IMG/VR virus record: IMGVR_UViG_2547132252_000010
Span: 1 to 6,799 of that record
Direction: 5' to 3' (one strand)
From: a virus
Taxonomy: Duplodnaviria > Heunggongvirae > Uroviricota > Caudoviricetes
Length of the DNA stretch: 6,799 bases
The position numbers and the translations under genes were made by a program. Positions 1 through 6,799 of the stretch are shown in pieces (position 1 is the stretch's first letter; every line of letters begins with the position of its first letter). The notes under the pieces were generated by a model. The model was not told the origin of the DNA and searched no databases. It saw nothing but the letters and a program-made list of their open reading frames with translations.

Positions 1-34
1 CCCGGGTTTCCTGGAGAGTGTTTTATCTGTGAAC

Positions 35-924
35 TCAGGCTGCCAGATCATCGTTTCCGATGGAAGCATAATAAGCTTTTTCTGCTTCTGCCGGAGGAGT
101 ATGGCCCAGCCTTCCCAGCAATCGTCGATTGTTATACCAGTCCACCCACGTTAGTGTGGCCAGTTCCACTTCTGCACGGTTTTTCCAGCTCTTACGGTGT
201 ATTACCTCCGCTTTGTAAAGACCATTGATGCTCTCAGCCATCGCGTTGTCATACGAGTCGCCTGTACTCCCTGTTGATGCCAGTAATCCGGCTTCTTTTA
301 GTCGCTCCGTATAGGCCAGTGACACATACTGAGAGCCTTTATCGCTGTGATGGATGGTGCCAGACGGACGACGGGCCCACAACGCCTGCTCCAGCGCATC
401 CAGCACGAATGTCGTTTCCATAGACGATGAGACCCGCCACCCCACGATGTATCCGGCAAACACATCAATGATAAACGCCACATAGACGAAGCCCTGCCAT
501 GTGCTGACGTAAGTAAAATCAGCCACCCACAGCTGGTCAGGTCGTTCTGCCACGAACTGACGGTTTACGCGGTCGCCTGCGGCAACGGCTTTCCGGCTGA
601 TGGTCGTACGGACCTTTTTACCCCGGAGAACACCGGCAAGTCCCATAACCGCCATGAGACGTGCCACTGTACATCTGGCCACCTGATTCCTTCCCGTAAC
701 AACTGACGCCAGACTTTACGCACACCGTACACCTGATGATTTTCATCGTATACGCGCTGTATCTCTCTCTTCAGCCAGTCGTCGTGCTGCGCACGGGCAC
801 TGCGTTTATCCGGATGATGTCGCTGTTGCTGACAATGGTAATACGTTGACGGGGCAATATGCAGTTCGCTGCATACCGGTCCGACCCCGTACTGCTCACG
901 CAGCTTATCCAGCAGTGGCATCAT
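35..924 (-). pseudogene. IS3-family transposase OrfB (DDE integrase core), frame-disrupted: N-terminal part 565..924 and C-terminal DDE part 35..682 are in different frames
   Basis: IS3-family OrfB is normally one ORF of about 290-300 aa. Here the N-terminal segment ([16 protein letters not shown]...RQLLREGIR) and the DDE catalytic segment (VARCTVARLMAV...WVADFTY...HHSDKGSQY...ESINGLYKAEV...) sit in different frames and overlap across 565-682. The switch maps to about 682-683, where the minus strand reads atc agg tgg cc; one extra G (atc agg gtg gcc) would give the continuous REGIRVARCTV reading. Confidence 0.65.
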
Positions 925-1247
925 TTTTTCCAGAGGCGGTCGAACTCCGCCTTCGCAAAATAAGCGGAAGCCTGGCGAAGGATATCGTTACTGCGGCGCA
1001 GTTCACGATTTTCACGTTCCAGCTCTTTCAGACGCTGACGTTCAGCGCTGGTGAGCCCACCATCACCGCCCCCGGTATCCCGCTCATGCTGGCGAACCCA
1101 GACACGCAGAGTCTCCGGCGTACAGCCAATCTTTGGGGCAATGGAACAAATTGCCGCCCACTGTGAGTCATATTCATCCTGACTTTCCAGAACCATACGA
1201 ATCGCCCGCTGACGGACTTCGGGGGAAAAACGAGTATTTTTAGTCAT
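921..1247 (-). CDS. IS3-family transposase OrfA (HTH DNA-binding subunit), 108 aa
   Basis: [33 protein letters not shown]...[36 protein letters not shown] with an HTH followed by a leucine-zipper-like segment. Its stop overlaps the start of the orfB frame at a T6 run (plus-strand 924-929, A6 on the coding strand), the usual IS3-family -1 frameshift window. Confidence 0.9.
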
Positions 1248-1339
1248 CCTGTTTACCTCTTTCTCAGGGAGTTTAGTCTCCAGGATTTCCGGGGCGGTTC
1301 ACACCAAGTCTGGCCGCGAATTTCTTAGCATCACCAACC

Positions 1340-1467
1340 CTTAATGATTTAATAAACTCTTTTAATGTCATACCTTCCTCGGTTTAGTGTTTTTTGCGAG
1401 TTTAGTGTTTAATAAACCATTAAGTCAAGTATTTGCTTGTTTAGTGATTACTAAAGATAATTACCAC
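1340..1467 (+). promoter_or_regulatory. Candidate promoter-operator region of the TA operon: five direct repeats of TTTA(G/A)TG(A/T) with about 20-bp spacing, plus a sigma70-like -35/-10 pair placing the transcript start at or next to the ATG (leaderless)
   Basis: Repeat copies start near 1340, 1361, 1383, 1401 and 1440; longer forms are TTAATGATTTAATAAACT (1341-1358) and TTTAGTGTTTAATAAACC (1401-1418). TTGCTT at 1433-1438, a 17-bp spacer and GATAAT at 1456-1461 fit a promoter, and there is no Shine-Dalgarno before the ATG at 1468. Promoter and operator roles are inferred. Confidence 0.4.
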
Positions 1468-1838
1468 ATGCAAAAAAAGAAATTCGCCGTTTACGTCTCA
1501 AGGAGTGGTTTAAAGATAAAACTCTGCCACCCAAAGAGAAGAGCTACCTATCTCAACTAATGAGTGGGAGAGCCTCGTTTGGAGAAAAGGCTGCCAGAAG
1601 AATAGAGCAAACATACGGGATGCCGGAAGGGTATCTGGATGCGGAATACGCAGAACAACCGGGGGGTTCTCCACCACATGCAGGGTTAACGTCTAATCAA
1701 CTGGAATTATTGCAGATTTTTTCAGCCTTCCCTGAGGATGAGCAACGCCAGATAATCAGCGAGTTAAAGCAGAAAAAAGAATCAATGGAAGATCTCATAG
1801 CGAGATGGATTGCGGCGCAAAAATGCCGCCGCGCCTGA
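1468..1838 (+). CDS. paaR2: HTH transcriptional regulator of the TA operon (PaaR-like), reading frame offset at an A7 tract; the longest clean ORF is 1560..1838 (92 aa), but the HTH-encoding codons extend upstream to 1461 with no in-frame start
   Basis: Frame 0 from 1461 encodes LPHAKKEIRRLRLKEWFKDKTLPPKEKSYLSQLMSGRASFGEKAARRIEQTYGMPEGYLD..., a Cro/CI-type HTH, but has no ATG, GTG or TTG before M at 1560. The only upstream ATG (1468, atgcaaaaaaag) is in the +1 frame and stops after 30 codons at 1558-1560. One extra A in the A7 run 1472-1478 would give a continuous protein MQKKEIRRLRLKEWF... of about 123 aa. The symbol is by synteny with the recognised antitoxin and toxin genes. Confidence 0.55.
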
Positions 1839-1858
1839 GTTATAAAACCGGAGGAAAC

Positions 1859-2050
1859 ATGAATAGAGCCCTTTCACCAATGGTTTCTGAATTTGAAACC
1901 ATTGAACAAGAAAACAGTTACAACGAATGGCTGCGTGCGAAAGTAGCAACGAGCCTTGCAGATCCGCGCCCAGCAATTCCCCATGACGAAGTTGAGCGCA
2001 GAATGGCAGAACGCTTTGCTAAGATGCGCAAGGAACGGAGCAAGCAGTAA
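1859..2050 (+). CDS. paaA2: Small antitoxin of a ParE-type three-component TA system (PaaA2-like), 63 aa
   Basis: ATG at 1859 preceded by GGAGGA (1850-1855). The product MNRALSPMVSEFETIEQENSYNEWLRAKVATSLADPRPAIPHDEVERRMAERFAKMRKERSKQ is small, charged and helical, and matches my recollection of PaaA2. Its stop (2048-2050) lies 1 nt before the toxin ATG. Confidence 0.75.
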   Translation: MNRALSPMVSEFETIEQENSYNEWLRAKVATSLADPRPAIPHDEVERRMAERFAKMRKERSKQ

Positions 2051-2051
2051 A

Positions 2052-2330
2052 ATGTTACCCGTGTTATGGCTTGAAAGCGCAGATACCGACCTAGATGATA
2101 TAACTAGTTATATTGCTCGTTTCGACATAGATGCGGCTGAACGCTTATGGCAGCGATTAAGGGGTTGTGTGCTGCCGTTATCCGAACATCCGTATTTATA
2201 CCCACCAAGCGACAGAGTACCTGGCTTGCGTGAGATTGTAGCCCACCCTAACTATATAATTCTATACCGCGTAACAACATCAAGCGTTGAAGTAGTAAAC
2301 GTGATCCACGCAAGACGCCAGTTTCCCTAA
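2052..2330 (+). CDS. parE2: ParE/RelE-superfamily toxin (ParE2-like), 92 aa
   Basis: MLPVLWLESADTDLDDITSYIARFDIDAAERLWQRLRGCVLPLSEHPYLYPPSDRVPGLREIVAHPNYIILYRVTTSSVEVVNVIHARRQFP has the ParE-family pattern (D-x-x-I-x-x-YIA, RE-[IL]-V, YIILYRV). The start at 2052 is tightly coupled to the antitoxin stop; the in-frame ATG at 1956 would overlap paaA2 by 95 nt and is rejected. Confidence 0.85.
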   Translation: MLPVLWLESADTDLDDITSYIARFDIDAAERLWQRLRGCVLPLSEHPYLYPPSDRVPGLREIVAHPNYIILYRVTTSSVEVVNVIHARRQFP

Positions 2331-2350
2331 CTTTCACTACCAATAGAAAC

Positions 2351-2393
2351 ATAACAACCGCAACGACTTTATCAAAAGCGTTGTGTTTGTTAT
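2351..2393 (+). terminator. Candidate intrinsic terminator after the TA operon: 15-bp A/U-rich stem (one mismatch, one G-U) with a 13-nt loop and U-rich 3' arm
   Basis: ataacaaccgcaacg (2351-2365) pairs with cgttgtgtttgttat (2379-2393), starting 21 nt after the parE2 stop. The stem is atypically long and AT-rich, so the call is weak. Confidence 0.3.
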
Positions 2394-2400
2394 GTCCCGC

Positions 2401-2441
2401 GGTTTAGTTTTTACTTGGCTTAAGTTTAATGTTTATTAAAC
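2401..2441. repeat. Paralogous second copy of the operator-like block found upstream of the regulator
   Basis: GGTTTAGTTTTTACTTGGCTTAAGTTTAATGTTTATTAAAC (2401-2441) aligns with GGTTTAGTGTTTTTTGCGAGTTTAGTGTTTAATAAAC (1381-1417), sharing the GGTTTAGT head and the TTTA(A/G)TGTTTA(A/T)TAAAC core. Confidence 0.45.
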
Positions 2442-2680
2442 TAAAAATACCAACCACCCCGCCCCACAGAACGCAGGGAAATACTTCGAGTTACCCGGCA
2501 GTGGTCAGGGGTTAAGTAGCCAGCCCGAGGCGTATGAACATGACGGCAGGGTTCAACTTTAATAACTATGCAGCAGTTTTTTGTTCCGCTACCCCGGCGT
2601 TAAGGGGAAACAGAGGGTTTCTCAGTGGGCGAAGTCAAACATCAGAATGGAAGGCATCCCGGGATCGGCAAAGAAGCAGC

Positions 2681-2711
2681 AATGGCGCTTTATATTGACA
2701 TCAGCGCCATT
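2681..2711 (-). terminator. Possible terminator hairpin downstream of the minus-strand zinc-ribbon gene
   Basis: Perfect 9-bp inverted repeat AATGGCGCT (2681-2689) and AGCGCCATT (2703-2711) with a 13-nt loop, about 50 nt past the stop at 2760-2762. On the minus strand it is followed by GCUGCUUCUUUG, only moderately U-rich, and the loop is large. Confidence 0.2.
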
Positions 2712-2759
2712 GCAGGACAGGTAAGAGTTATCAGAGCGGTAACTAAGCGGTATGCGCCT

Positions 2760-2960
2760 TTACTTCAGAAAGTCTCTGGTGAGTGCACCGAAGATATTGT
2801 CAACGATTTCGTCATCGAACTGCGAGGACTCATCTTCAGTTACAAGGTGACCACAATTTTTGCAGATGGCTCCCGCGAAACTGTCAGAGCCCTGCGGCTT
2901 AAAGGATGTGTCAAAGACTTCGCCACCACATTCTGGGCAAGAAAACTTGATTGTATTCAT
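2760..2960 (-). CDS. Small C4 zinc-ribbon protein with acidic C-terminal tail, 66 aa
   Basis: The minus-strand ATG at 2960 is preceded by AGGA with an 8-nt spacer (gagAGGAaattggttATG). The product MNTIKFSCPECGGEVFDTSFKPQGSDSFAGAICKNCGHLVTEDESSQFDDEIVDNIFGALTRDFLK has C-P-E-C and C-K-N-C pairs about 21 residues apart, then an acidic tail. The overlapping plus-strand ORF 2625..2981 has no ribosome-binding site and is taken as antisense noise. Confidence 0.6.
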   Translation of the reverse strand: MNTIKFSCPECGGEVFDTSFKPQGSDSFAGAICKNCGHLVTEDESSQFDDEIVDNIFGALTRDFLK

Positions 2961-3052
2961 AACCAATTTCCTCTCGAGTAACAGACCCCTCAGAGGATAC
3001 CACCTCGCCTGACGTGGTTAAAAGCAGGCAACGCTAACCACAAGGAGCCGAC

Positions 3053-3271
3053 ATGCAGAAACGAGAACCCGTCATCATCGCGCCAGACTATACCGATGAT
3101 GAACTTTATGAGTGGATGCACCAGAAAATTAATGCAGCGCAGGATCTGAAATGGGCCAATGAAGCCAGGGCTAAGCAGGCTGAAAATCTGTCCGCTCTGG
3201 AGCAGGATATCACCAATCTGGAAAAAGCAGCGGCATTAAGCATTGCCAGAATGATTACATACCCGCGTTAA
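3053..3271 (+). CDS. Hypothetical small protein, 72 aa, predicted helical/coiled-coil
   Basis: ATG at 3053 is preceded by AAGGAG (3042-3047) with a 5-nt spacer. The product is MQKREPVIIAPDYTDDELYEWMHQKINAAQDLKWANEARAKQAENLSALEQDITNLEKAAALSIARMITYPR. It is divergent from the zinc-ribbon gene across a 92-bp intergenic region; no family recognised. Confidence 0.55.
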   Translation: MQKREPVIIAPDYTDDELYEWMHQKINAAQDLKWANEARAKQAENLSALEQDITNLEKAAALSIARMITYPR

Positions 3272-3627
3272 TAGCTAACCAACGAAGCTAAGGTTGGTAA
3301 TTAAGGAGTTCTCCACGGGTGAGGTGGAGTGCGTGCGCCGGACACGGGTGAGCATACGGCACTGACAGTTTACTGAAAGGATATTTCCCTGAAAAGTCAG
3401 ACCATAACGCGAAAGCGCACGGCGAGGTAGCTGGTTCATAGATAGCCTGTCGTTAAATTTTCGTCGACCGTGCGCTTCCGGTTGTGGCAATCCGCGAAAT
3501 GGCGCGGCGGTAAGTATGGAGGGGTTATTCCTTCCCCCGTTGAGGACACCGGGTTGTCAGGTTGACCATACGCTTAAGTGACAACCCCGCTGCAACGCCC
3601 TCTGTTATCAATTTTCTGGTGACGTTT

Positions 3628-3670
3628 GGCGGTATCAGTTTTACTCCGTGACTGCTCTGCCGCCCTTTTT
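3628..3670 (+). terminator. Candidate intrinsic terminator: GC-rich 7-bp basal stem (GGCGGUA/UGCCGCC) plus apical 4-bp stem, followed by CUUUUUAAA
   Basis: GGCGGTA (3628-3634) pairs with TGCCGCC (3658-3664), and CAGT (3636-3639) with ACTG (3651-3654); a T5 run follows at 3666-3670. It lies about 400 nt after the stop of the 72-aa gene and just before the 19-bp inverted repeat. Confidence 0.35.
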
Positions 3671-3674
3671 AAAG

Positions 3675-3822
3675 TGAATTTTGTGATGCGGTGAATGCGG
3701 CTGAGCGCACGCGGAACAGTTAAAACCAAAAACAGTGTTATGGGGGGATTCTCTGTATCCGGCGTTAATTGTTAACTGGTTAACGTCACCTGGAGGCACC
3801 AGGCACCGCATCACAAAATTCA
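3675..3822. repeat. 148-bp segment bounded by perfect 19-bp inverted repeats (TGAATTTTGTGATGCGGTG at 3675-3693; reverse complement at 3804-3822)
   Basis: Direct reading: the arms are exact reverse complements and the match stops at both boundaries. The 110-bp interior holds three GTTAA(C) repeats (3766-3784, including GTTAACTGGTTAAC at 3771-3784) and a tandem GGCACCAGGCACC (3795-3807). The right arm ends 17 nt before the ATG at 3840 and 5 nt before its GAGGA ribosome-binding site. Confidence 0.7.
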
Positions 3823-3839
3823 TTGTTGAGGACGCGATA

Positions 3840-4028
3840 ATGGAAACGTTATTACCAAACGTTAATACGTCTGAAGGTTGTTTTGAAATTGGTGTCACTA
3901 TCAGTAACCCTGTATTTACTGAAGATGCCATTAACAAGAGAAAACACGAACGGGAGCTATTAAATAAAATATGCATTCTTTCAATGCTGGCCCGTTTACG
4001 TCCGATACAAAAAGGATGCTGGCAATGA
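3840..4028 (+). CDS. Hypothetical small protein, 62 aa
   Basis: ATG at 3840 is preceded by GAGGA (3828-3832) with a 7-nt spacer. The product is METLLPNVNTSEGCFEIGVTISNPVFTEDAINKRKHERELLNKICILSMLARLRPIQKGCWQ. Its TGA stop (4026-4028) overlaps the next ATG (4025-4027) as ATGA, implying translational coupling. The longer track ORF from 3735 has no ribosome-binding site and would run through the inverted-repeat arm. Confidence 0.45.
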   Translation: METLLPNVNTSEGCFEIGVTISNPVFTEDAINKRKHERELLNKICILSMLARLRPIQKGCWQ

Positions 4029-4216
4029 ATACAGCATTTGCACTTGTTCTGACAGTTTTTCTTGTTTCCGGAGAGCCAGTTGATATTGCAGTCAGTGTTC
4101 ACAGGACAATGCAGGAGTGTGTGACTGCAGCAACCGAACAGAAAATTCCCGGTAACTGTTACCCGGTCGATAAAGTTATTCACCAGGATAATAACGAAAT
4201 CCCGGCAGGTCTTTAA
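4025..4216 (+). CDS. Hypothetical small membrane-associated protein, 63 aa, hydrophobic N-terminal segment
   Basis: ATG at 4025 is preceded by AAGGA with an 8-nt spacer (aaaAAGGAtgctggcaATG). The product MNTAFALVLTVFLVSGEPVDIAVSVHRTMQECVTAATEQKIPGNCYPVDKVIHQDNNEIPAGL has an uncharged hydrophobic stretch at residues 3-16 (one transmembrane helix or atypical signal) and two Cys. The alternative start at 3971 lacks a properly spaced Shine-Dalgarno. Confidence 0.45.
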   Translation: MNTAFALVLTVFLVSGEPVDIAVSVHRTMQECVTAATEQKIPGNCYPVDKVIHQDNNEIPAGL

Positions 4217-4308
4217 AACAGTTCCGTAATAAACATCCGATTTCATTCTTATATGCCAGCAATGGCAGGGATTTGTTCACCCTTAAATCTGTAATGAGGT
4301 AAAACAAA

Positions 4309-6780
4309 ATGAGTAAAGTCTTTATTTGCGCCGCCATTCCGGACGAACAGGCAATAAAGGAAGAAGGTGCCGTCGCTGTAGCCACTGCCATTGAAGCCGG
4401 TGATGAACGTCGCGCCCGCGCAAAATTTCACTGGCAATTCCTGGAACATTATCCGGCTGCTCAGGACTGCGCTTATAAATTTCTTGTTTGCGAGGATAAA
4501 CCCGGTATACCCCGCCCTGCCCTCGATTCCTGGGATGCTGAATATATGCAGGAAAACCGCTGGGATGAGGCGTCTGCTTCCTTTGTCCCGGTCGAGACTG
4601 AATCCGATCCGATGAACGTCACTTTTGACAACCTGGCCCCTGAAGTACAGAACGCTGTCATGGTTAAGTTCGACACATGTGAAAACATCACTGTTGATAT
4701 GGTGATTAGCGCACAGGAATTGTTGCAGGAAGACATGGCAACATTCGACGGCCATATCGTTGAAGCGTTGATGAAAATGCCAGAAGTTAACGCCATGTAT
4801 CCGGAGCTTAAGCTGCATGCCATCGGGTGGGTTAAGCATAAATGTAAGCCTGGTGCCAAATGGCCCGAAATTCAGGCAGAGATGCGCATCTGGAAAAAAC
4901 GTCGCGAAGGTGAACGCAAGGAAGCCGGAAAATACACGTCTGTTGTTGATCTCGCCCGCGCCAGAGCCAATCAACAGCACACTGAAAATTCAACAGGAAA
5001 AATCAACCCGGTCATTGCTGCCATTCATCGCGAATACAAGCAGACATGGAAAACACTGGATGACGAACTGGCCTACGCTCTCTGGCCTGGTGATGTGGAT
5101 GCCGGAAACATTGACGGCAGCATCCATCGCTGGGCAAAAAATGAAGTTATCGACAACGGCCGCGAAGACTGGAAGCGTATCTCGGCATCAATGCGCAAAC
5201 AGCCTGATGCCCTTCGCTACGACCGCCAGACTATTTTTGGCCTTGTCCGTGAACGTCCGATCGACATTCACAAAGACCCTGTGGCACTGAACAAATACAT
5301 TACTGAATACCTGACTACAAAGGGCGTGTTTGAAGATGAAGGAACAAATCAGAGCGCAACTGACACTCTCTCGTCGCCAGTACCAGAAACTGATGCAGTG
5401 GAAACGGCAATTCCGGACAACGAAAAAACCGAATGCAAAGTGGAAGTCGAACCATCTGTAGAGCGTGAGGGGCCGTTCTACTTCCTCTTCACCGACAAGG
5501 ATGGCGAAAAATACGGTCGCGCAAACAAACTTTCTGGTCTGGATAAGGCGCTGGCTGCCGGGGCTACTGAAATCACAAAAGAAGAATATTTTGCCCGAAA
5601 AAATGGCACATACACAGGCTTACCGCAAAATGCAAATACCGCACAAAATTCTGAACAACCAGAACCGGTAAAAGTTACCGCTGACGAAGTAAAGAAAATT
5701 ATGCAGGCAGCCAATATCAGCCAGCCTGACGCCAATCAGTTGCTCGCCGCATCACGTGGTGAATTTGTTGCAGGGATTAGCGACCCGAATGATCCGAAAT
5801 GGGTGAAGGGGATTGAAACCCGCGATTCTGTGAACCAGAACCAGCAAGAAACGGAACAGAACGACCAGAAAGCGGAACAAAACAGCCCAAATACGCAACA
5901 AAACGAGCCAGAAACGAAACAACCTGAGCCAGTAGCGCAACAGGAACCGGAAAAAGTCTGCACCGCCTGCGGTCAGACCGGCGGCGGCAACTGCCCTGAT
6001 TGTGGCGCGGTGATGGGCGACGCAACATACCAGGAAACATTCGATGAAGAGTATCAGGTTGAAGTTCAGGAAGATGATCCGGAGGAAATGGAAGGCGCTG
6101 AACATCCACACAAGGAGAACACTGACGGCAATCAGCATCACGATAGCGATAATGAAACTGGCGAGACGGCAGATCACTCAATTAAGGTGAACGGTCATCA
6201 AGAAATCACATCCACCAGCAGGACGTGTGACCATCTAATGATCGACCTTGAAACCATGGGAAAAAATCCTGATGCCCCGATCATCTCAATAGGTGCAATA
6301 TTTTTCGATCCGCAAACCGGAGATATGGGACCGGAATTTAGTAAGACTATCGATCTGGAAACTGCTGGCGGGGTCATTGATCGGGACACCATTAAATGGT
6401 GGCTTAAGCAATCACGCGAAGCGCAATCTGCCATTATGACCGATGAAATCCCGTTAGATGATGCACTATTACAATTGCGGGAATTTATCGACGAAAACTC
6501 CGGTGAATTTTTTGTTCAGGTCTGGGGAAATGGAGCCAACTTCGACAACACGATTTTGCGCCGTTCATACGAACGGCAGGGGATCCCCTGCCCGTGGCGT
6601 TACTACAACGATCGCGATGTACGCACAATCGTTGAGCTGGGGAAAGCCATAGACTTCGATGCCAGAACGGCTATTCCATTCGAAGGTGAGCGCCATAATG
6701 CACTTGATGACGCCCGTTACCAGGCAAAATACGTTTCAGTTATCTGGCAAAAACTGATCCCGAATCAGGCTGATTTTTAA
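4309..6780 (+). CDS. Prophage recombination-type exonuclease, 823 aa: long N-terminal and linker region (RecE-like by recollection) with an internal C4 zinc ribbon, fused to a C-terminal DEDDh (DnaQ/ExoX-like) 3'-5' exonuclease domain
   Basis: ATG at 4309 is preceded by GAGGT with an 8-nt spacer. The C-terminal domain (from about M644, nt 6238) carries the three DEDDh motifs: Exo I MIDLETMG (D-x-E), Exo II WGNGANFD, Exo III HNALDDARYQAKY (H-x4-D). Upstream are a C-x2-C-x21-C-x2-C zinc ribbon (codons 551-565, nt 5959-6003) and an acidic Q/N/E/P-rich low-complexity linker. The middle region (LLAASRGEFVAGISDPNDPKWVKGI...CTACGQTGGGNCPDCGAVMGDATYQETFDEE) matches my memory of central RecE; this is unverified. 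Confidence 0.9.
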   Translation: MSKVFICAAIPDEQAIKEEGAVAVATAIEAGDERRARAKFHWQFLEHYPAAQDCAYKFLVCEDKPGIPRPALDSWDAEYMQENRWDEASASFVPVETESDPMNVTFDNLAPEVQNAVMVKFDTCENITVDMVISAQELLQEDMATFDGHIVEALMKMPEVNAMYPELKLHAIGWVKHKCKPGAKWPEIQAEMRIWKKRREGERKEAGKYTSVVDLARARANQQHTENSTGKINPVIAAIHREYKQTWKTLDDELAYALWPGDVDAGNIDGSIHRWAKNEVIDNGREDWKRISASMRKQPDALRYDRQTIFGLVRERPIDIHKDPVALNKYITEYLTTKGVFEDEGTNQSATDTLSSPVPETDAVETAIPDNEKTECKVEVEPSVEREGPFYFLFTDKDGEKYGRANKLSGLDKALAAGATEITKEEYFARKNGTYTGLPQNANTAQNSEQPEPVKVTADEVKKIMQAANISQPDANQLLAASRGEFVAGISDPNDPKWVKGIETRDSVNQNQQETEQNDQKAEQNSPNTQQNEPETKQPEPVAQQEPEKVCTACGQTGGGNCPDCGAVMGDATYQETFDEEYQVEVQEDDPEEMEGAEHPHKENTDGNQHHDSDNETGETADHSIKVNGHQEITSTSRTCDHLMIDLETMGKNPDAPIISIGAIFFDPQTGDMGPEFSKTIDLETAGGVIDRDTIKWWLKQSREAQSAIMTDEIPLDDALLQLREFIDENSGEFFVQVWGNGANFDNTILRRSYERQGIPCPWRYYNDRDVRTIVELGKAIDFDARTAIPFEGERHNALDDARYQAKYVSVIWQKLIPNQADF

Positions 6781-6799
6781 TGTTCAACCCCGGTCGTTG
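6780..6799 (+). CDS. 5' end of the next gene (MFNPGR...), start overlapping the exonuclease stop in TAATG; truncated by the window end
   Basis: ATG at 6780-6782 overlaps TAA at 6778-6780, a typical coupled arrangement. Only 6 codons are visible, so this is based on position alone. Confidence 0.25.

Follow-up and report, generated by a model that had tools for sequence, protein, structure and literature searches.

Jurenas et al. [quoted passage not shown] In vivo, PL933P of the EDL933 allele (−35 TTGACT) fused to gfp was repressed about 100-fold by PaaR2 and likewise by YdaS. The footprints and gel shifts reported for the two proteins cover the OR region, i.e., the intergenic region between paaR2 and ydaS. 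PaaR2 was described as forming octamers as CI does, PaaA2 as having no DNA-binding domain, and the ORFs downstream of PL933P as having no assignable function. The same authors already proposed that the toxin-antitoxin (TA) genes were inserted into the immunity region, and they placed the OL/PL933P region downstream of the TA locus. One sentence of that paper instead puts PL933P “upstream of the RAE2 locus”. For the Qin prophage of E. coli K-12, dicBp has been recognized as the PL analogue, with DicA as its repressor (Ragunathan and Vanderpool, 2023, PMC10448788, and references therein), and in phage lambda cI-rexA-rexB lies between OR and OL.

We have analyzed a window of 6,799 nucleotides (positions 1 to 6,799 of IMG/VR record IMGVR_UViG_2547132252_000010). 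It comes from a lambdoid cryptic prophage of E. coli O157:H7, of CP-933P/Sp12 type, and spans the immunity and early-left region. A first-pass annotation had pointed out that a block at 2401–2441 resembles another at 1381–1417, and that the three genes paaR2, paaA2 and parE2 are bracketed by the two. We conclude with high confidence that block 2401–2441 is OL/PL933P of CP-933P. This element is already known from the 2021 publication, and the block is real but ordinary.

Compared with the published PL933P, which is repressed by PaaR2 and YdaS, the window contains the same element with the same operators and the same −10, but here the −35 is TTGGCT, ydaS is cut by IS1203/IS629 and paaR2 is frameshifted as read. 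OL/PL of lambda resembles the block in lying downstream of the repressor operon, in overlapping an outward promoter and in reusing the operator sequence of OR. In addition, rexAB occupy the position that paaA2-parE2 occupy here, and the lambda repressor and PaaR2 both form octamers. In contrast to lambda, PaaR2 (123 aa, without S24 peptidase domain) belongs to an unrelated repressor family, the operator sequence is different, OR and OL are ~1.0 kb apart instead of ~2.4 kb, there is no N/nutL downstream of PL, and looping between OR and OL is something we infer for this locus. The dicBp promoter of Qin has the same position and the same type of downstream operon (ydfC, dicF, dicB, ydfD), and for dicBp as for PL933P a PL analogue has been described whose operators lie between repressor gene and promoter. 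Since PL933P is followed by the DicF sRNA and dicB, it is the CP-933P counterpart of dicBp. The transcribed leader from ~2454 is homologous in Qin and the window, and is found in thousands of E. coli genomes, whereas the operators and promoter hexamers upstream of 2454 are non-homologous and the Qin repressor is DicA and not PaaR2. Unlike CP-933P, Qin also lacks TA genes in the interval from repressor gene to promoter.

Results

Gene order and location of PL933P

The genes and neighboring features of the window are the following:

1–1301, minus strand: IS3-family element (IS1203/IS629) inserted in ydaS, with an ALIL pseudoknot at 850–966
1370–1302, minus strand: remnant of ydaS (cro-like), first 23 codons only, cut by the IS after codon 23
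1468–1838, plus strand: paaR2, gene of the CI-like immunity repressor, frameshifted here; leaderless, start at 1468
1859–2050, plus strand: paaA2, antitoxin gene, cargo between the repressor gene and OL
2052–2330, plus strand: parE2, toxin gene, cargo between the repressor gene and OL
2331–2448, plus strand: fragment cloned as PL933P-gfp (Jurenas et al., 2021), from primer mapping
2349–2395, plus strand: stable hairpin between the parE2 stop and OL, 22-nt arms, −24.8 kcal/mol, z −3.8
2454–2620, plus strand: conserved untranslated leader of an early-left dicBF-type operon, common to prophages of other immunity
2966–2760, minus strand: zinc-ribbon ORF, 68 aa, ECs_2282 family, convergent with PL
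3053–3271, plus strand: ydfC, downstream of PL
3614–3665, plus strand: DicF sRNA (Rfam RF00039, 76.7 bits)
3840–4028, plus strand: dicB, downstream of PL
4025–4216, plus strand: DUF1482/ydfD-like gene, downstream of PL
4309–6780, plus strand: exonuclease gene, 823 aa, after the ydfD-like gene

ydaS and paaR2 diverge from OR; paaR2 is followed by paaA2, parE2 and the block, and the block by ydfC, dicF, dicB and the exonuclease gene in outward direction, with xis and int coming next in the O157 genome PNUSAE151637. In this genome an IS is located at a different position in ydaS, and ydaS has therefore been disrupted more than once. The zinc-ribbon ORF takes the place of ydfA-ydfB in Qin-like prophages, and a promoter-like site is found beside it on the minus strand (2977–2950). 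PaaR2 and most of the cargo ORFs gave no match in a Pfam search.

The location of PL933P is settled because the published primers map to positions 2331–2448 of the window. F-PL-SacI matches 2331–2351 on the plus strand and R-PL-BamHI 2427–2448 on the minus strand, both uniquely (Table S3 of PMC8630535). Therefore, the published fragment encloses the whole block and reads rightward. The block begins at 2401, 70 nt after the parE2 stop at 2330, as the first-pass annotation had placed it, and it has the following properties of an OL/PL region: it lies beyond the 3′ end of the repressor operon and heads the early-left operon, which is transcribed outward; it holds repeated copies of the OR operator sequence; its operators overlap sigma-70 promoter elements (−35 at 2415–2420, 16-nt spacer, −10 at 2437–2442); and in mosaic comparisons it lies at the edge (~2454) of the immunity-specific module. 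It does not have the placement of a type II TA autoregulatory operator, being downstream of parE2 and pointing away from it.

The edge of the module was seen in two comparisons. In thousands of E. coli genomes the match to the window starts only at ~2447–2455 and runs rightward, and matches of this kind occur in most of the 4360 genomes hit. Compared with two prophages with LexA-family repressors, the operators and promoters are unrelated up to ~2453 and nearly identical from CACCCCGCCCCACAG on. As homology starts at ~2454, the edge of the immunity module is a few bases at most from the predicted PL start. The non-coding leader at 2454–2620 (~170 nt) is at least 97% conserved in prophages with unrelated immunity regions. 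A nut-like or put-like structured RNA in this leader was rejected, as the RNA of 2449–2625 folds no better than shuffles (z +1.3) and has no Rfam match.

The hairpin at 2349–2395 is a candidate operon-end element and, by analogy of position, possibly the counterpart of lambda tIMM. We rejected it as an intrinsic terminator: no T-tract follows directly, a terminator scan made no call, and the outer pairs vary without compensation. These outer pairs are not conserved, and no covariation was found. Non-homologous hairpins are present at the same position in the paaR1-type loci L057 and L065 and in a cargo-less Klebsiella phage (L003), where the hairpin is a canonical terminator. The ~10 bp from the hairpin to OL2 (2390–2400) are hypervariable among CP-933P-type loci that are otherwise ~99% identical. 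The variants include TGTCCCGCGG, CGCCCCACGG, CGCTCCATGG and TCGTGTTGTGG, among others, and they break outer pairs of the hairpin without compensation.

Operators and promoter elements

The operators of both regions and the elements of PL933P are listed in order of position:

1382–1399: half-site operator GTTTAGTGTTTTTTGCGA, left part of the comparison block 1381–1417, from the repeat search
1400–1417: strong right operator GTTTAGTGTTTAATAAAC, 26.0 bits, within the PaaR2/YdaS footprints (PMC8630535)
1439–1456: right operator GTTTAGTGATTACTAAAG, overlapping PRM933P, 19.5 bits (PMC8630535)
2402–2419: second left operator GTTTAGTTTTTACTTGGC, from the repeat search
2415–2420, plus strand: −35 of PL933P, TTGGCT here, TTGACT in EDL933-type prophages and phage Evi
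2424–2441: strong left operator, 18-bp palindrome GTTTAATGTTTATTAAAC (GTTTA-N8-TAAAC, 10/10), 22.3 bits, kept in relatives
2437–2442, plus strand: −10 of PL933P, TAAACT, formed by the 3′-terminal 5 nt of the palindrome and the T after it, a family-wide pattern (PMC8630535)

The palindrome at 2424–2441 sits in the spacer of PL and overlaps its −10, and the −35 lies 3 nt upstream of the palindrome within the second operator. The latter has a good left half (GTTTAGT at 2402), while its right half is replaced by the −35 hexamer. A half-site 22–24 bp upstream of the strong site is found in the same arrangement in all lineages. Transcription from PL933P is predicted to start at ~2449–2451. A generic promoter scan did not call PL on the plus strand because TTGGCT and TAAACT have only 8 of 12 consensus matches. 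The OR region (97 bp, 1371–1467) contains PR933P on the minus strand, with −35 TTGACT at 1428–1423, an 18-nt spacer and −10 TAAACT at 1404–1399. It mirrors PL, as the palindrome at 1400–1417 lies in the PR spacer and overlaps the PR933P −10. Two left operators were placed with confidence, compared with the three counted by Jurenas et al. (2021). The third (their OL3) was not placed; 2380–2397 and 2431–2448 score poorly with the weight matrix described below.

In a local alignment with the paaR2/ydaS intergenic region, block 2401–2441 pairs with 1381–1417 in direct orientation, with 33 matches in 41 columns, two 2-nt gaps and a score of 35. The unit shared by the blocks is the 14-nt repeat GTTTAGTGNTTANT. 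With at most two mismatches, this repeat occurs five times in the window, at 1382, 1400, 1439, 2402 and 2424 only, compared with 0.44 expected. An operator weight matrix was built from distant relatives only, leaving out CP-933P-type loci. It finds exactly three strong sites in the window, at 1400–1417 (26.0 bits), 2424–2441 (22.3) and 1439–1456 (19.5), all above the best score across 100 shuffled windows (15.3).

The resemblance that the first-pass annotation had described thus consists of one operator motif present in both blocks, well above chance by alignment and shuffles. Both regions are ~75% A+T, and isolated matches to GTTTAGTNNTTANTAAAC turn up in unrelated taxa (118 of the 120 loci listed from a scan of 596 Gb), which is what a chance likeness of two AT-rich intergenic stretches would draw on. 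However, all of 2000 block shuffles scored lower than the alignment (mean 16.0, sd 2.7, max 30), and none of 200 shuffles gave five matches to the repeat. The site positions are kept across at least 15 diverged repressor lineages, and among the 120 loci listed two sites occur only in a PaaR locus (L184). A chance likeness can therefore be given practically no weight. The blocks resemble each other in direct orientation because each operator is a palindrome and, in both blocks, a half-site precedes a full site. Judged from sequence, the true functional counterpart of the PL block is the PR promoter, in inverted orientation.

PaaR-family loci

PaaR-family loci were taken from phage genomes and IMG/VR, giving 145 distinct loci (1.11 Mb). 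They contain 284 perfect GTTTA-N8-TAAAC sites, 283 of which are at the two flanks of the repressor gene: 134 lie just upstream of it, typically −67 to −70 from the repressor ATG, 149 lie downstream within 2.6 kb, and one lies elsewhere. The motif is consequently not a common AT-rich sequence scattered without a link to paaR-type loci, which the first-pass annotation had considered as a possible outcome. The two-flank arrangement holds with and without a TA cassette. A 10/10 site downstream of the repressor gene or cargo is present in 139 of the 145 relatives, and three of the six relatives without it are contigs that end before it. In all lineages PL and PR have a −35 TTGAC or TTTAC, 3–6 nt, and a palindrome ending in TAAAC followed by T, and TAAACT is found at nearly every PL and PR palindrome of the family.

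The length of the interval between the repressor stop and the strong OL varies. Without cargo it is 65–145 nt, e.g., in Klebsiella phage 5 LV-2017, which has a canonical terminator ahead of OL. It is 586 nt in the CP-933P type with paaA2-parE2, and other classes have 265–370, about 975–1025 and 1160–1660 nt. The ~1010-nt class contains a CI-like PaaR (72–78% identical), a second PaaR paralog, paaA (~94%), parE (~91%), a hairpin and OL. The second paralog has a different HTH_3 DNA-binding domain and a similar C-terminal domain. Tandem PaaR paralogs are also seen in two sister prophages from IMG/VR (L057, 4001–5400; L065, 4001–5415), where the first is 75–78% identical to PaaR2. This tandem may correspond to paaR1-paaA1-parE1, and the three-gene system possibly evolved through such an intermediate. 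In another IMG/VR locus (L160, 4529–5455) the interval encodes a protein of 308 aa with a match to PDC-S42, a candidate defence family of PADLOC (E 1e-91), and two further loci (L159, L161) hold other unknown cargo of 1.2–1.5 kb.

The 57-bp region of the block was found in 593 of 5426 complete E. coli genomes, with a median of one copy and a maximum of two, and this number is about the same as that of genomes with the paaR2-TA region (595). The search for further copies proposed in the first-pass annotation therefore returns a block that is single-copy at the median among the genomes having it. The scan of 596 Gb with GTTTAGTNNTTANTAAAC gave at least 120 loci, and single sites in it are uninformative: among the matches listed, 118 of 120 are isolated chance matches in unrelated taxa, only two adjoin a PaaR gene, and only the Yersinia PaaR locus L184 has two sites, ~1 kb apart. 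Going by these matches, the specific signal is that of paired sites and of sites adjoining a PaaR gene.

The allele in the window

The OL/PL allele and the switch of this window look degenerate, because ydaS is disrupted and paaR2 reads frameshifted, and the block may here be a relic without a regulator to bind it. The −35 of PL is TTGGCT, compared with TTGACT in EDL933-type sequences and phage Evi. TTGGCT and the IS junction are shared with Rafaela_II, the closest complete genome, and O157:H7 08-3914 also belongs to that lineage. The block is matched at 99% or more in about 9 of the 593 genomes, which is consistent with a rare allele. The same A-to-G change in the −35 arose independently in a paaR1-type locus (L067). 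From its sequence, TTGGCT may be a down-mutation that naturally weakens PL and possibly lowers expression of the division inhibitors DicB and DicF in an O157:H7 sub-lineage.

The window differs from Rafaela_II in two homopolymer lengths only, those of the OR T-tract and the paaR2 A-tract. The T-tract (1390–1395) is T6 here, T7 in Rafaela_II and T7 or T8 elsewhere. The A-tract in codons 2–4 of paaR2 (1472–1478) is A7 here as opposed to A8, which causes a frameshift with a stop at 1558–1560. A8 is found in the published primer F-1-PaaR2 (PMC8630535) and, among complete genomes, in the two closest ones checked, both with the same IS junction; A7 is also found in four IMG/VR contigs (L052, L053, L055 and L056). 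In phage Evi and its relatives both tracts are interrupted (AGAAAAAA and TTTTCTT). The A7 of paaR2 could be real slippage that inactivates the repressor, or a homopolymer sequencing error.

Discussion

Why the cassette appears bracketed

The first-pass annotation had offered three readings of the second block: a second regulator-controlled promoter, a mark of cassette boundaries, or a decoy site. The first of these holds, as the promoter is PL933P, which both PaaR2 and YdaS repress about 100-fold (Jurenas et al., 2021), the cassette boundaries do not hold, and the decoy is unnecessary. If the blocks were recombination substrates or scars at the ends of a mobile paaR2-paaA2-parE2 cassette, it would fit that they flank the three genes in direct orientation, that the cargo between repressor gene and OL varies among relatives, that lambdoid immunity regions are known to exchange as modules, and that the mosaic boundary at ~2454 adjoins the block. 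However, the repeats flanking a mobile cassette should lie at the ends of the polymorphism and leave a single copy at the empty site, which is not what we found. The comparison of relatives with and without the TA cassette, which had been suggested as a check, found no lone leftover repeat, as cargo-less relatives keep both operator sets. The left copy is upstream of the repressor gene, which is itself outside the variable cargo. Homology of the paaA-parE genes to paaR1-type loci extends only from ~1855 to ~2328 (the parE stop), and outside these limits the spacer, hairpin and OL sequences all differ. Therefore, both ends of the cassette fall within the bracket instead of coinciding with the operator blocks. 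The repeats are also only 14–18 bp long, imperfect, and coincide with promoter elements. The cargo-less relatives and the limits of the TA homology thus largely refute recombination scars, which we regard as very improbable.

The block could also be a promoter-less decoy that titrates PaaR2, or a mere looping anchor for OR. A strong operator ~1 kb from OR and the reported CI-like octamers of PaaR2 (PMC8630535) agree with this, but the fragment drives gfp in a repressible manner (PMC8630535; EDL933 allele), the −35 and −10 positions are conserved across the family, and a dicBF-type operon begins immediately downstream. A decoy or anchor without promoter activity is consequently very unlikely. 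As the site overlaps the −35 and −10 of a promoter active in the EDL933-allele reporter (PMC8630535), no decoy is needed to explain it, and the block as OL/PL933P may still make some contribution to titration or looping.

Proposed mechanism and the cargo interval

The CI-like PaaR2 recognizes 18-bp palindromes of the form GTTTA-N8-TAAAC, and the Cro-like YdaS is proposed to act on the same or overlapping sites. In the mechanism we propose, PaaR2, or intact YdaS, would bind OL directly, and on the palindrome at the −10 and the half-site at the −35 of PL it would most likely occlude RNA polymerase. This would silence the rightward early-left operon, i.e., the leader, ydfC, the DicF sRNA, the division inhibitor DicB, the ydfD-like gene and the exonuclease, as well as xis and int in related genomes. 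The OR operators (1382–1456) control the divergent promoters PR (ydaS) and PRM (paaR2). Looping between OR and OL by octameric PaaR2, over 1024 bp from center to center, is plausible. The bracket is OR and OL flanking the repressor operon, as around cI-rexA-rexB in lambda, with paaA2-parE2 as cargo between the repressor gene and OL.

OL is kept with or without TA genes, and the TA cassette is therefore one of several alternative cargoes of the repressor-to-OL interval. The contents seen in this interval are nothing, small ORFs, paaA-parE alone, a PaaR paralog with paaA-parE, the PDC-S42 candidate and unknown genes. On balance we lean slightly towards the idea that this interval is a conserved slot for cargo, with exchange of accessory modules under immunity-region control in parallel to rexAB of lambda, and that the TA genes landed there. 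The slot generalization and the two-regulator intermediates are what we add to the insertion proposed by Jurenas et al. (2021).

The identification of OL/PL933P is in itself a rediscovery, from raw sequence, of a control element that Jurenas et al. (2021) had already found and tested, and little is at stake in it. For annotation, where similar sequence flanks a TA cassette in the immunity region of a prophage, OR and OL are the interpretation to consider first, rather than cassette ends. The survey defines the PaaR-family operator GTTTA-N8-TAAAC and a PL/PR architecture conserved across enterobacterial phages, and it points to the repressor-to-OL interval as a variable slot able to hold TA and candidate defence genes. 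In sister prophages, the cassette is still accompanied by a separate regulator of the PaaR type. If the cargo slot is real, the “three-component” paaR2-paaA2-parE2 system would be a two-gene TA system that landed beside the prophage’s own CI-like repressor and came to depend on it.
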